Source: Octopus vulgaris
Taxonomy: Eukaryota
Reading direction: 5' to 3'
Assembly: GCA_951406725.2 (NCBI GenBank)
Contig: OX597837.1
Location: 682,001-746,000, forward strand
Length of the DNA stretch: 64,000 bases
The translations under genes and the position numbers were made by a program. Position 1 is the first letter of the stretch. Each line of letters opens with the position of its first letter. The notes beneath the pieces were generated by a model. That model made no database searches and was not told the DNA's origin. It worked only from the letters and a program-made list of their open reading frames with translations. Below are positions 4,745-10,208 of the stretch, piece by piece.

Positions 4745-4807
<63 letters not shown>

Positions 4808-4962
4808 AGGTCCCGGGTTGAGTCGGGGTTAACCACAGTAAATAAGGTACTCAATACATAGCAGAGTTAAGTAATTTATTTTATAGAAGGAGCTTCTACA
4901 GGACTAGAACTGTTTCATGAATGAAACAGTTCTAGTCCTGTAAACTCCTTCTATAAAATAAA
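4808..4962. repeat. Penelope-like terminal fragment with foldback hairpin (4875-4962)
   Basis: TTTATTTTATAGAAGGAGCTTCTACAGGACTAGAACTGTTTCAT / ATGAAACAGTTCTAGTCCTGTAAACTCCTTCTATAAAATAAA inverted arms between microsatellites. Confidence 0.65.
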
Positions 4963-5023: not shown

Positions 5024-6713
5024 CGTCAGAAATTAATTAGCACCCTTGATTTTCTCTTCACTCAAGGTATTTGCTGTCACCTAGTGGCCATATCTCGAAC
5101 TATTGCTTTGTTGTGAGTTCACTGTTGCGCAGAACGATGACGTAACTTTGTTTGCAGAGCAGTTTGAGAGTCTACAGCCTAATGATGTTGACATAGCAGT
5201 GCAACAACAACTTGGAGTGCGGATGCAGACAAATCTTCCTTTGTTTAATAGATATAGGTAGCGCCTCGCAAGGACCGAAATCACACCGTACTAAGTTTTC
5301 TCATCGCGTAAGACGTTTTGAACAGCTCGTAGGTTAATTGATTTGTGTATTTGCAAGATTTTTTTTCTCACAAATTCTCCTACACTCTGCTTGATGACGT
5401 CACTTCTGGTTCACAAAACTTTCTGTTATACATCAAATAAGGTGAGAAATTCTGCTTTCTTTCTTTTTTTGTTTAATGAATAATAACTCATAGCAGTTTT
5501 GTTATAGCATAACATTATTCAAATGAATAGTTTTAATGAAAATAACTGGTTTTTATCGTTCATTCCTAGATGGGCCCAAGACCTCGCATGACCTTGGAGA
5601 GACGGTACGAGGCTCTCTCGTGGCGTGGGAAGCTGTCGGAGGCTGCAATAGCCAGAAAACTTGGTGTAACCAGGCGCACAATTCAGTGCTTATTTAAGAA
5701 ATACGAGGAAACCGGATCAGCAGCTGACAAAAAGGGTAGGGGACGGAAGAGGCTGACGACCCAGCGGGAGAACCGGGTGCTGATCCAAAAGTCGCTGTAC
5801 AACCGAAGGGCAACGAGCCGGCAACTGGCGGAGGAGATGCAAAAGATGACAGGGAAGCAGTTGTCTACAACCATCGTCAAGACCAGATTACTGGAAGCTG
5901 GTCTAAAATCCTGTAGGGCCGCCCATAAGCCGCTCCTTACAGCCCAAAACTGGAAGAGGCGGCTGCTCTGGGCCCGTGCCCACAAGACATGGACCGTGCA
6001 GCAGTGGTGGACAGTGATGTTCACTGACGAGTCGCGATTCAGTCTCGTCAGTGACAAGCCTGTCCATGTGCGACGCCGCAGGGGTGAGCGCTTCAACAAA
6101 GACTGCATTGCTCTCACCATGAAGCAAGGTGGGGGTGGTCTGATGGTGTGAGGGGCGTTCAGCTACAGTGGTGTTGGGCGGCTCTATGCCGTCGAAGGCT
6201 ACATCAACGCAGCAAAGTACGTTGAGATAGTACGGGATACCTCTTTGGTGGCGAGGAGTACGTGCTCCAGCAGGACAACGTGCCTTCCCACACAGCCAAG
6301 CTCACAACCGGTTTCTTCAAGGACCATGGGGTGACGGTCATGGACTGGCCTGGCCAGTCACCTGACCTGGCCAGTCACCTGACCTGGCCAGTCACCTGAC
6401 CTGGCCAGTCACCTGACCTGAACCGACACAAGCTGTTTGGGGCACTTCTTGCTGCATGGAGGGCCATCCCTGCACAGTACCTGCAGGCACTCATAGACAG
6501 CATGCCGACCCGCGTAGCAGCTGTCATTGCTGCCAAAGGAGGAGCAACAAGATATTGACTAAATTTCACGATTAATAACAATTATGTGGTGTGCTGGGAT
6601 ATGTTTTAATAAATTTTTGATTATAAACGATTTCGTTTCTGATAATAAGTTAATTAAATTAAGAAAATGTAAGAAAATGTAGAAATTTGAGAAGTGCTAA
6701 TTAATTTCCGACG
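5024..6713 (+). mobile_element. Tc1-family DNA transposon, near full length, defective
   Basis: TIR core CGTCAGAAATTAATTAGCAC (5024-5043) versus GTGCTAATTAATTTCCGACG (6694-6713); set in TA tracts; encloses a transposase. Confidence 0.92.
5570..6559 (+). pseudogene. Tc1 transposase pseudogene
   Basis: HTH (IARKLGV), GRGRK motif, KPLLT..RLLWA, VMFTDESRF, GGGLMV*G (TGA at a Trp codon), QQDN, WPGQSPDL, LIDSMPTRVAAVIAAKGGATRY; carries stop, frameshift and deletion. Confidence 0.92.
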
Positions 6714-7189: not shown

Positions 7190-7678
7190 ACGCACACACA
7201 CACACATTCACACATACACACTAGCAGTTGCACATGGCGTTGCTCGTGTTTTCCTTGTTGAAGTCAAGTCTACGTCCGACTTTGTATTGAATAAGCATTT
7301 CCTTAAAGACTATTCTATCGATTTTGTTGAAATTTTATACGTGCAAACATGCAAAAGCTGGAGGAAAAATAACATCGCTATGGGAATTTCCATTCAAACG
7401 CTCGATTGAGCTCACAAACATCGATTCCAACTGAGCATTATCGAGTTTTCGAAAAATTCCGGCCTTATTTGAACTTCAGGGCATGTGATCTACCTAAGTG
7501 CTAAAAGTCATTAAAAGCGGTTGGACGCTGTGGGAGGAGTTAGATAACCCCCCTCATACACACACACACTGTTACACATTTATATATATATATATGTGAA
7601 GCAGGTGTACAAGAAGTACGGCCACTACTTTATTTTTGTTGAATATTAATATTATTTTAATTGTATTTATATTTTTAA

Positions 7679-7892
7679 GGCGGCGAGCTGGTACAAATGT
7701 TAGCATTCCGGGCGAAATGCTTAGCGGTATTTCGTCTGTCTTTACGTTCTGAATTTAAATTCAGCTCAGGGCGACTTTGCCTTTCATCCTTCCGGAGTCG
7801 ATGACTTAAGTACCAGTTGCGTACTGGGGTCAATCTGATCGACTGTTCCCTCCCCCAAAATTTCAGGCCTTGCACCTAGAGTTGAAAAGGAT
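7679..7892 (+). mobile_element. Short tRNA-derived octopus-type SINE
   Basis: GGCGGCGAGCTGG...GAAATGCTTAGCGGTATTTCG...GACTTTGCCTTTCATCC...AAGTACCAGTTGCGTACTGGGGTC; multiple copies in the window. Confidence 0.9.
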
Positions 7893-8445: not shown

Positions 8446-8448
<3 letters not shown>

Positions 8449-8669
8449 AGCTGGCAGAAACGTTAGCACGCCGGGCGAAATGCGTTGTCGTATTTCGTCT
8501 GCCGTTACGTTTCGAGTTCAAATTCCGCCGAGGTCGACTTTGCCTTTCATTTTTTCGGGGTCGATAAATTAAGTACCAGTTACGCACTGGGGTCGATGTA
8601 ATCGACTGAATCCCTTTGTCTGTCCTTGTTTGTCTCCTCTGTGTGTAGCCCCTTGTGGGTAGTAAAGAA

Positions 8670-8671
<2 letters not shown>
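8446..8671 (+). mobile_element. Short tRNA-derived SINE (same family as 7679)
   Basis: GCGAGCTGGCAGAAACGTTAGCACGCCGGGCGAAATGC...GAGTTCAAATTCCGCCGAGGTCGACTTTGCC with a B-box-like GTTCAAATTCC. Confidence 0.92.
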
Positions 8672-8703
<32 letters not shown>

Positions 8704-8829
8704 CAACATCACAATCAAGGAACGGCCATAATAGGCCATTCACCCACTAGAAATAACAGCCAAAGCTTCAACCGCAAAATAACATTAATTCCGCAAACCA
8801 GGAGAAAATTAAAAAACATTTACCCTGTA

Positions 8830-8936
8830 ATTTCTTATACGATGCACCGTTTCATCTACTGTTTAATGGTAAACTAACCTGATTAAATTAAATCAAGCCA
8901 ATCTTCCATAGGCCCTTAGATTCGTCAGTAAGAAAT
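8830..8936 (-). ncRNA. Type I hammerhead ribozyme motif with extended stem II
   Basis: ATTTCTTA-CTGACGA-ATCTA...TAGAT-GAA-ACGGTGCATCGT-A-TAAGAAAT: 8 bp stem I, intact core, quasi-palindromic stem III, GUA triplet. Confidence 0.82.
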
Positions 8937-9405
8937 AGCCAGATCGGAACAGATATTTTCACGAGGCATTTCTGTCCCTGCCTCGGCAATATCTGACCTA
9001 AAATTTTCAAATCATCGCACTCGCGCCAAATTTATCGGCAGCAAATAAATATAAGCCGCCGATTCCATTACGGAATCAACCAGAAAATTCATAATTAATC
9101 AATATAGGGTGGCAAAAAAAATTTTGTAGAATTTTTTTGCCACCAGCGGCCTAGTGGGAAAAAATTAAATAAATTAATTTTTTCCCACTAGGCCGCTGGT
9201 GGCAAAAAAATTCTACAAAATTTTTTTTGCCACCCTATATTGATTAATTATGAATTTTCTGGTTGATTCCGTAATGGAATCGGCGGCTTATATTTATTTG
9301 CTGCCGATAAATTTGGCGCGAGTGCGATGATTTGAAAATTTTAGGTCAGATATTGCCGAGGCAGGGACAGAAATGCCTCGTGAAAATATCTGTTCCGATC
9401 TGGCT

Positions 9406-9512
9406 ATTTCTTACTGACGTATCTAAGGGCCTATGGAAGATTGGCTTGATTTAATTTAATCAGGTTAGTTTACCATTAAACAGTAGATGAAACGGTGCAT
9501 CGTATAAGAAAT
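9406..9512 (+). ncRNA. Hammerhead motif, inverted twin of 8830-8936 with A9>U
   Basis: Same fold, but the core reads CTGACGT (position 9420). Confidence 0.7.
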
Positions 9513-10208
9513 TACAGGGTAAATGTTTTTTAATTTTCTCCTGGTTTGCGGAATTAATGTTATTTTGCGGTTGAAGCTTTGGCTGTTATTTCTAGTGGGT
9601 GAATGGCCTATTATGGCCGTTCCTTGATTGTGATGTTGAACTTATAAATGGTCTATGACTATTTAATTTTTTCCCACTAGGCCGCTGGTGGCAAAAAAAA
9701 TTCTACAAAATTTTTTTTGCCACCCTATATTGATTAAATATATATATATGTATATATATATATGCATGCGTCAGTGTTTTTGCGCGCGCGCGTATGTGTA
9801 AGGAAAAGTGATCAATGTATGTTGGTAGATATCTATAAAACACTCATTGTTAAACGGATCTGCTTAACTATATCAAATGATCGGATAGTAATGAATGTAA
9901 GTAGAATTGAGTTTGAAGGTAATTCGTCATGTATAACTAGTAAAACCAAAAATCACTGAGAAGAATTTCAAGAAATTCGGAGTATATTCCATTTCGAGTC
10001 GAGTCCATTTTGCGATTGCCTCGATAACATTGTCAGCTTATATTTTCGGATATACTCATTTCACTGGTATTTTATACTTCTTTCTCTGTATGTAAATGTG
10101 GCGATAATGTATAATATAATACTTCATGTAATTCATATTGTAATTGTCTCCATTCTTATTCTTGTAGTTTTACATGTGTGCATGTATATATATATATATA
10201 TACATAAG

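Follow-up and report, generated by a model that had tools for sequence, protein, structure and literature searches.

A palindromic insertion of a 489-nt hammerhead repeat in Octopus vulgaris: probably a recent non-LTR retrozyme copy with a Penelope-like footprint

Non-LTR retrozymes of metazoans are described as short, non-coding repeats with a GC content below 50%, arranged head-to-tail and carrying one type I hammerhead; they are predicted to form well-folded circles and occur as many diverse copies, both as dispersed monomers and as partial tandems (PMC7229834; bioRxiv 10.64898/2026.07.22.740005). The enzyme that moves them is still a matter of proposal, since the repeats show no motif naming a helper (PMC7761336, a 2020 review), and a 2026 preprint argues for a helper from co-occurrence and pseudo-LTR homology, mainly in vertebrates (bioRxiv 10.64898/2026.07.22.740005). 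In the giant squid genome, 235 hammerhead matches were counted without further study (PMC6962438). No paper on an octopod or cephalopod retrozyme was found in the literature, where supplementary lists could name one. Inverted heads or tails are not described in the main texts of the retrozyme literature searched (PMC7229834, PMC7761336, bioRxiv 10.64898/2026.07.22.740005), nor are octopods mentioned in those of PMC7229834 and the preprint; their supplements may differ.

Penelope-like elements are the second point of reference. Their insertions have been reported to comprise partial tandems, an inverted 5'-truncated copy and a one-sided tail, with a bias to (TA)n in some clades, and a (TA)n preference is given for the Naiads of Octopus, though cephalopod Naiads are called long inactive (PMC8557442). 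Palindromic head-to-head junctions were read as self-priming by Arkhipova et al., and pseudo-LTR ends were shown to act in trans (PMC3846280). For a purified anole element, cutting and extension of both strands have been reported, with two internal RNA start sites that delimit the tail and uncut RNA as the template (PMC11167929). Pairs of opposite-strand hammerheads 100-700 bp apart have also been described (PMC4209133), and 31 recently active Penelope-like families are reported from O. vulgaris (PMC13282606). Nothing on Penelope hairpin priming was found in the literature beyond the work cited here.

The locus lies in a 64-kb stretch of O. vulgaris DNA (the window, i.e., the whole stretch that was analysed), which is rich in TA microsatellites (Table 1). 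Inside one of these microsatellites it holds a mirror-image copy plus 1.15 head-to-tail copies of a 489-nt unit; read in the ribozyme sense, the arms stand head to head and the right one is 98 nt longer than the left. The initial annotation had described a near-perfect palindrome of about 935 bp followed by a restart of the unit, and both were recovered: the palindrome measures 937 bp (two 466-nt arms and a 5-nt loop), and the 75-nt restart carries one extra A in a poly-A run, with eight A against seven in both arms. Exactly one mismatch separates the arms over their 466 nt (99.8% identity), at 8922/9420. This is position A9 of the hammerhead core, which is U in the right arm; the change at A9, taken before as one of a few arm differences, turned out to be the only one. 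No ORF was found in the element, whose longest stop-free stretch is 58 codons (9174-9737), and self-comparison detected no further copies of the unit within the 64-kb window. The layout (a head-to-head inverted 5' copy, a one-sided tail and a TA target) is that of the published Penelope-like footprint, to which the initial annotation had not related the combination of palindrome, one-sided tail and (TA)n.

Table 1. Coordinates of the features of the locus and of the palindromes of similar layout in the window
Feature	Position	Strand	Basis
Left (TA)n target microsatellite, directly adjoining the left arm	8670..8702	unstranded	sequence
Left arm: unit positions 1-466 in inverted orientation, with the 5' end at the centre	8703..9168	-	self-comparison
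Palindrome-centre loop, 5 nt, TTAA-flanked; putative snap-back point	9169..9173	unstranded	sequence; mechanism proposed
Right arm, 466 nt	9174..9639	+	self-comparison
Full 489-nt non-coding unit, GC 37%	9174..9662	+	sequence and family evidence
One-sided tail, 98 nt: last 23 nt of the unit plus 75-nt restart (9663-9737)	9640..9737	+	self-comparison, flank distances
Right (TA)n target microsatellite; target-site duplication unreadable inside the TA repeat	9738..9763	unstranded	sequence
Type I hammerhead, intact core CUGACGA; predicted cut after GUA, after 8838	8830..8936	-	descriptor scan; predicted
Second hammerhead copy, core CUGACGU (core nucleotide 9, at 9420, is U); predicted cut after GUA, after 9504	9406..9512	+	descriptor scan
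Predicted long-range helix enclosing the hammerhead domain	9260-9272 / 9548-9560	+	constrained fold and variants
Main element, tail 98 nt	8703-9737		flank distances
Palindrome, tail 56 nt	29636-29918		flank distances
Palindrome, 77 nt to TA run	4875-4962		flank distances

Each arm carries one hammerhead copy, and these two were the only matches when both strands of the 64 kb were scanned with a relaxed hammerhead descriptor. Among 2000 dinucleotide shuffles of the unit, the strict descriptor matched none (0/2000) and the loose descriptor three (3/2000). The core CUGANGA ... GAAA ... UH in a three-way junction is complete in the minus-strand copy, whereas the plus-strand copy has U9; a change of this kind at core position 9 lowers hammerhead activity. 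Stems I, II and III comprise 8, 5 and 4 bp, respectively: stem I is open-ended (9406-13/9505-12), a stem II region of 68 nt stands between the core and GAAA, and stem III is closed by the palindromic loop UGCA. The 8-bp stem I and a stem II of about 70 nt had been recognised correctly by the initial annotation, which counted six G.U pairs in the inner helix of stem II where five are present. No Rfam hammerhead match was obtained over the window, either at gathering score or at E values up to 10, a blindness that we infer to be due to the long stem II; at gathering score no Rfam model of any kind matched the 64 kb. The 81 sub-threshold Rfam matches (E up to 10) were mostly to miRNA and sRNA models on the palindrome centre, and a miRNA reading of it was rejected.

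The active hammerhead fold was predicted to lie 2.1 kcal/mol above the minimum and to make up approximately 0.8% of the ensemble, in a model without tertiary contacts or Mg. The long stem II would also fit poorly into the usual geometry of the tertiary contact between loops 1 and 2, and the mussel retrozyme likewise lacks most of the loop-contact nucleotides (PMC7229834). According to the initial annotation, good folding is restricted to the ribozyme strand. This is borne out by the 107-nt hammerhead (z -4.05, opposite strand -1.90) and only in part by the whole 489-nt unit (-152 kcal/mol and z -5.9, opposite strand -110 kcal/mol and z -5.6). Circularising the unit, a check proposed in the same annotation, gave a fold of -149 kcal/mol (z -5.7). 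Further hairpins had been listed in the unit as well, a description that needs partial revision: the small one at 9265-9281 loses a pair in the majority allele of the family (9265A), while at the paired positions of the predicted long-range helix the pair is kept in 5/5 listed variants, so that the variants would favour this helix over the hairpin.

The stretch was present in 20 of the 24 public sequencing runs listed (18 of them with half of its words or more), which belong to 9 studies and four organism codes (A-D); among them are runs of 41 and 51 million letters, which contain it at a share of 0.78. The single unit was mapped in four of these 24 runs, namely two DNA runs, one of them possibly the source sample and the other from a different study and organism code, and two runs guessed to be RNA. 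Contigs matching the unit numbered 5,176 and 16,632 in the DNA runs, and 183 and 118 in the runs guessed to be RNA. All 29 bins of the unit were covered in 4/4 runs, and the share of contigs continuing into unlike sequence was 0, 0, 0 and 0.05. Depth profiles of the runs were kept out of copy-number estimates and of the location of ends. Joints leading from about 9662 back to about 9174 were found in both DNA runs at depths of 164-1,744, and therefore the 489-nt period is a trait of the family; the head-to-tail evidence consists of these joints together with the restart at the locus, no listed piece spanning the whole unit. With thousands of variant contigs per DNA run, the family is multicopy and diverse; the unit is repeated elsewhere and stands in tandem in other copies, in support of the initial annotation. 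In run X16, the match of one contig stops at 9635, where ATATATAT follows, 4 nt from the end of the left arm; this recurring 3' end is represented by a single contig, and the second end (9247 equivalent) is absent among the loose ends listed. Exact-pattern scans of viral contigs, metagenome contigs and prokaryote genomes, where an animal repeat is not expected, gave no matches.

Position 9420 reads A at approximately 100% of the depth in all four runs, and hence U9 is private to the right arm of this locus. Among the 40 examined of 75 variant rows, the only core positions found to vary were N7 (C/U/A) and the return to A9. In the hammerhead stems, the variants at 9425 and 9484 would swap A-U for G-C, their phase not being given by the data, and those at 9413, 9485 and 9509 give G.U pairs; among the stem variants listed, 9488 U to C breaks a stem II pair and has no partner among those rows. 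A loop III variant turns UGCA into UAUA, which is still palindromic, its two changes standing at equal depth in three of the four runs and at near-equal depth in the fourth. Palindromic loops III have been described for dimer-competent type I hammerheads (PMC4209133). Scoring covered 39 of the 75 variants (the 40 best supported minus 9420) against the structure predicted from this copy, with phase absent: 21 lie outside the predicted pairs, 12 leave a pair intact, 5 break one and 1 is compensated by a partner variant. The 5-6 pair-breaking variants among 39 compare with 12.5 +/- 2.3 expected from random placement (P about 0.005). Thus, family variation appears mostly to spare the predicted helices, as it would under RNA-structure constraint, which is support rather than proof.

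The unit resembles metazoan non-LTR retrozymes in all the general traits listed above. Its 489 nt exceed the 150-450 nt given for retrozymes by Cervera and de la Pena in 2020 (PMC7229834) and lie within the 51-972 nt of Li, Clavereau and Pollet in 2026 (bioRxiv 10.64898/2026.07.22.740005), whereas its 68-nt stem II region contrasts with the stem II of about 4 bp plus loop of metazoan retrozymes. With the satellite-2 hammerheads of newt and axolotl it shares the type I fold, the tandem unit and a palindromic loop III that allows dimer folding (PMC7229834), and it differs from them in the long stem II and in the 4 bp of stem III, which would make activity of the monomer plausible here. Of 9 retrozymes predicted in Xenopus, 8 failed to cleave in vitro (bioRxiv 10.64898/2026.07.22.740005). 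None of the listed runs with the stretch is recorded as RNA, which has no bearing on whether it is expressed. The two runs in which the octopus unit might be read as RNA are only guessed to be of that kind, and contigs cannot reveal circles.

Endonuclease-bearing Penelope-like elements (Penelope/Poseidon, Neptune and Naiad) share with the locus the inverted 5' copy, the palindromic junction, the one-sided tail, the partial tandem, the (TA)n target and a hammerhead near the 3' end (PMC8557442, PMC3846280, PMC11167929). Unlike them, the locus has no reverse transcriptase or GIY-YIG ORF, its tail is non-coding and measures 98 nt against the 30-40 nt in print, and its hammerhead is of the full type rather than the minimal Penelope type, which has an extra nucleotide after A9, G10.1-C11.1 and little or no stem III. 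Non-autonomous Chlamys elements, of which MRC1 is one, are likewise non-coding and depend on Penelope; they have pseudo-LTRs and insert as head-to-tail multicopies. They are found in green algae and are described as helper-like at their 3' ends, and most Chlamys elements lack a hammerhead (PMC8557442).

Five long palindromes from the self-comparison of the window were checked for their flank distances. In three of them one arm adjoins (TA)n and a further 98, 56 or 77 nt separates the other side from a TA run. The one with the 56-nt tail, on its left, is a palindromic insertion in (TA)n with 136-nt arms (29581-29918 with the tail). Each of its arms carries a minimal hammerhead (29794-29829 on the plus strand and 29760-29725 on the minus strand) with the extra nucleotide, G10.1-C11.1 and the palindromic loop of Penelope motifs, and with the 3-8 pair swapped to G-C; the scan for minimal hammerheads gave no matches in 10 block-shuffled windows. 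Among the papers cited here, U3-A8 is a natural variant of this pair and G3-C8 is described only as an engineered rescue. A 30-codon frame through the tail (29579-29668, minus strand, ATG at 29668) was considered as the start of a Penelope ORF and set aside as unsupported, with no match in 1.84 billion proteins. In the palindrome at 4875-4962, the arms are 91% alike, (TA)n adjoins on the right, and about 70-77 nt of extra sequence and a TA/TG run lie on the left (4800-4962); no hammerhead was found in it. The fourth palindrome (49032-49326), with 75 nt to a TA run on the right and a TG/GA flank and no TA run on the left, has arms 88% alike and, with the microsatellite flank on its left (49032-49400), is possibly a decayed insertion of similar kind. 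The fifth (20491-21133) lacks the tail and TA layout; in the region 20491-21255, nested SINE pieces are enclosed by two inverted copies of a different short element. Arm identities of the other palindromes with this layout range from 88 to 97.5%. Since the layout recurs at unrelated palindromes, a process with this footprint has acted on several sequences in the window that are not related to one another. No reverse transcriptase or GIY-YIG ORF was detected by a simple motif scan of its six frames, and neither a helper element nor homology to a Penelope pseudo-LTR was found within the 64 kb.

Other repeats were also observed in the window. Two copies of a common SINE, 77-82% alike, lie just upstream of the element (7644-7892 and 8446-8608), the second resembling an octopus SINE, and further copies occur near 20.8, 21.2, 23.3, 24.5 and 55 kb. 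Broken LINE copies with endonuclease-like and reverse transcriptase frames are present on the minus strand (43589-46147 and 39455-41249); the best named relative of the reverse transcriptase fragment at 43592-44533 comes from Argonauta hians (57% identity), a protein without a name scoring higher and the majority of the matches being unnamed as well. By eye, a frame at 5570-6300 resembles a Tc1-type transposase. A direct duplication of about 1,430 bp with 98.3% identity (31222-34100) represents either a recent duplication or an assembly error.

Taken as a whole, the locus is probably a recent copy of a many-copy, non-coding 489-nt hammerhead repeat, likely a non-LTR retrozyme and likely inserted into (TA)n by a Penelope-like reverse transcriptase-endonuclease acting in trans. 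By analogy with coral, mussel and axolotl, in which monomer cleavage and ligation have counterparts (PMC7229834), tandem source loci would be transcribed and their hammerheads would cut the RNA into 489-nt monomers to be ligated into circles. The helper enzyme would nick both strands of a (TA)n tract, and on a circular or uncut multimeric RNA the cDNA would start at two internal sites, which correspond to 9639 and 9737. The left-primed cDNA would extend through the hammerhead as far as 3 nt upstream of the unit start, fold back at the TTAA hairpin and copy itself, yielding the mirror arm, while the right-primed cDNA, starting 98 nt further downstream, would supply the one-sided tail and with it more than one unit length. 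The change of A9 to U would have followed in one arm, or be a base-call error. Both arms stop within 3 nt of one 5' point, which is the TTAA-flanked hairpin and not the cleavage site. The complementarity of the left arm to the tandem junction extends 3 nt further, to 9171, and the first three loop bases are the antisense of the three bases before the unit start. The stop point and these loop bases fit a snap-back of left-primed cDNA with the tail from right-primed cDNA, the order of the two steps depending on the three matching bases; the seven A of both arms, against eight in the restart, also fit. The cut site is intact within both arms, and the right side is longer than one unit; the template would therefore have been a circle or an uncut multimer. 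With a single hammerhead per strand, the plus-strand one bearing U at A9, the locus itself is unable to release a circle or monomer. Provided that the difference is real and that the arms are not repaired from each other, hand arithmetic with one difference in 466 at the octopus rate of PMC13282606 dates the insertion to about 0.3 million years (upper bound about 1.7).

It is unlikely that the locus is instead the 5'-truncated stub of an autonomous Penelope-like element, with the unit as its pseudo-LTR and no separate non-autonomous family. Such a stub would share the layout of Penelope-like insertions (PMC8557442, PMC3846280), and 152 and 336 contigs cross the unit ends, their continuations being listed in part; nevertheless, in two organisms the end of the unit is joined, at the same register, to its own start, the tail has no ORF start, unlike Penelope tails (PMC11167929, PMC3846280), and the hammerhead has neither the extra nucleotide after A9 nor the G10.1-C11.1 of the minimal motifs. 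The initial annotation had left the choice between a young retrozyme and a pseudo-LTR insertion derived from a structured RNA. The insertion type stood, and youth is plausible with one mismatch in 466 nt; of the two options, the retrozyme fits better, because the unit closes on itself, has no ORF and carries a hammerhead free of the Penelope marks. An origin of this copy at the DNA level, the family being real, is quite improbable; here no RNA intermediate would be involved, a break in the TA tract having been repaired with a piece of satellite array and the palindrome produced by template switching. TA tracts are fragile, the tandem arrays exist as DNA donors, and arms intact across the cleavage site would be trivially explained by DNA copying. 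This origin is at odds with the recurrence of the arm, tail and TA layout for unrelated sequences in 64 kb, with a second copy (one contig) whose end, followed by TA, lies no more than 4 nt away, and with variation of the family as if under RNA-structure constraint.

That assembly or a chimeric read created the palindrome around an ordinary single or tandem copy seems very improbable. A fold-back read would have mirrored the flank too, whereas the two arms of this locus end at separate points, each bordered by TA and then by different sequence, and older palindromes of like layout with arms 88-97.5% alike are not expected from an artefact, even though the 99.8% arm identity, the absence of a strand-change joint at the palindrome centre among the joints listed from the public runs, and the near-exact 1.4-kb direct duplication in the window (31222-34100), maybe an assembly error itself, would all agree with one. 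It is scarcely credible that the locus matters as a source of double-stranded RNA for the host, as an ADAR or Dicer substrate. A read-through transcript would be predicted to form a 466-bp hairpin, but no transcript across the centre was seen in the runs examined, and a look around the locus by means other than gene prediction identified no host gene. The two DNA runs show A-to-G changes at 9 and 10 places, the two putative RNA runs at 11 and 13, so that no RNA-specific excess is evident between these unmatched individuals. Even the DNA runs have A-to-G as the most frequent of the listed changes on the ribozyme strand (9 and 10 places against 4 and 8 T-to-C, numbers too small for a firm call), a skew that edited templates could leave.

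Retrozymes and Penelope footprints are both already known kinds. The insertion footprint of the octopus repeat offers a line of evidence on the retrozyme helper that differs from those used so far, and one locus does not settle the question. The long stem II widens the range of hammerhead shapes missed by Rfam models, and a high-copy family with arm differences and two end points makes both the helper and the origin of inverted ends testable from one genome. It is possible, and put forward tentatively, that an octopod retrozyme family with a long stem II has dispersed copies bearing the full Penelope footprint genome-wide, with two fixed start sites, a one-sided tail and snap-back arms in (TA)n. 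If so, the structure of these copies would be direct evidence that animal retrozymes are moved by Penelope enzymes, which copy a circular template for more than one round, and that fold-back of the cDNA creates the inverted pseudo-LTR.
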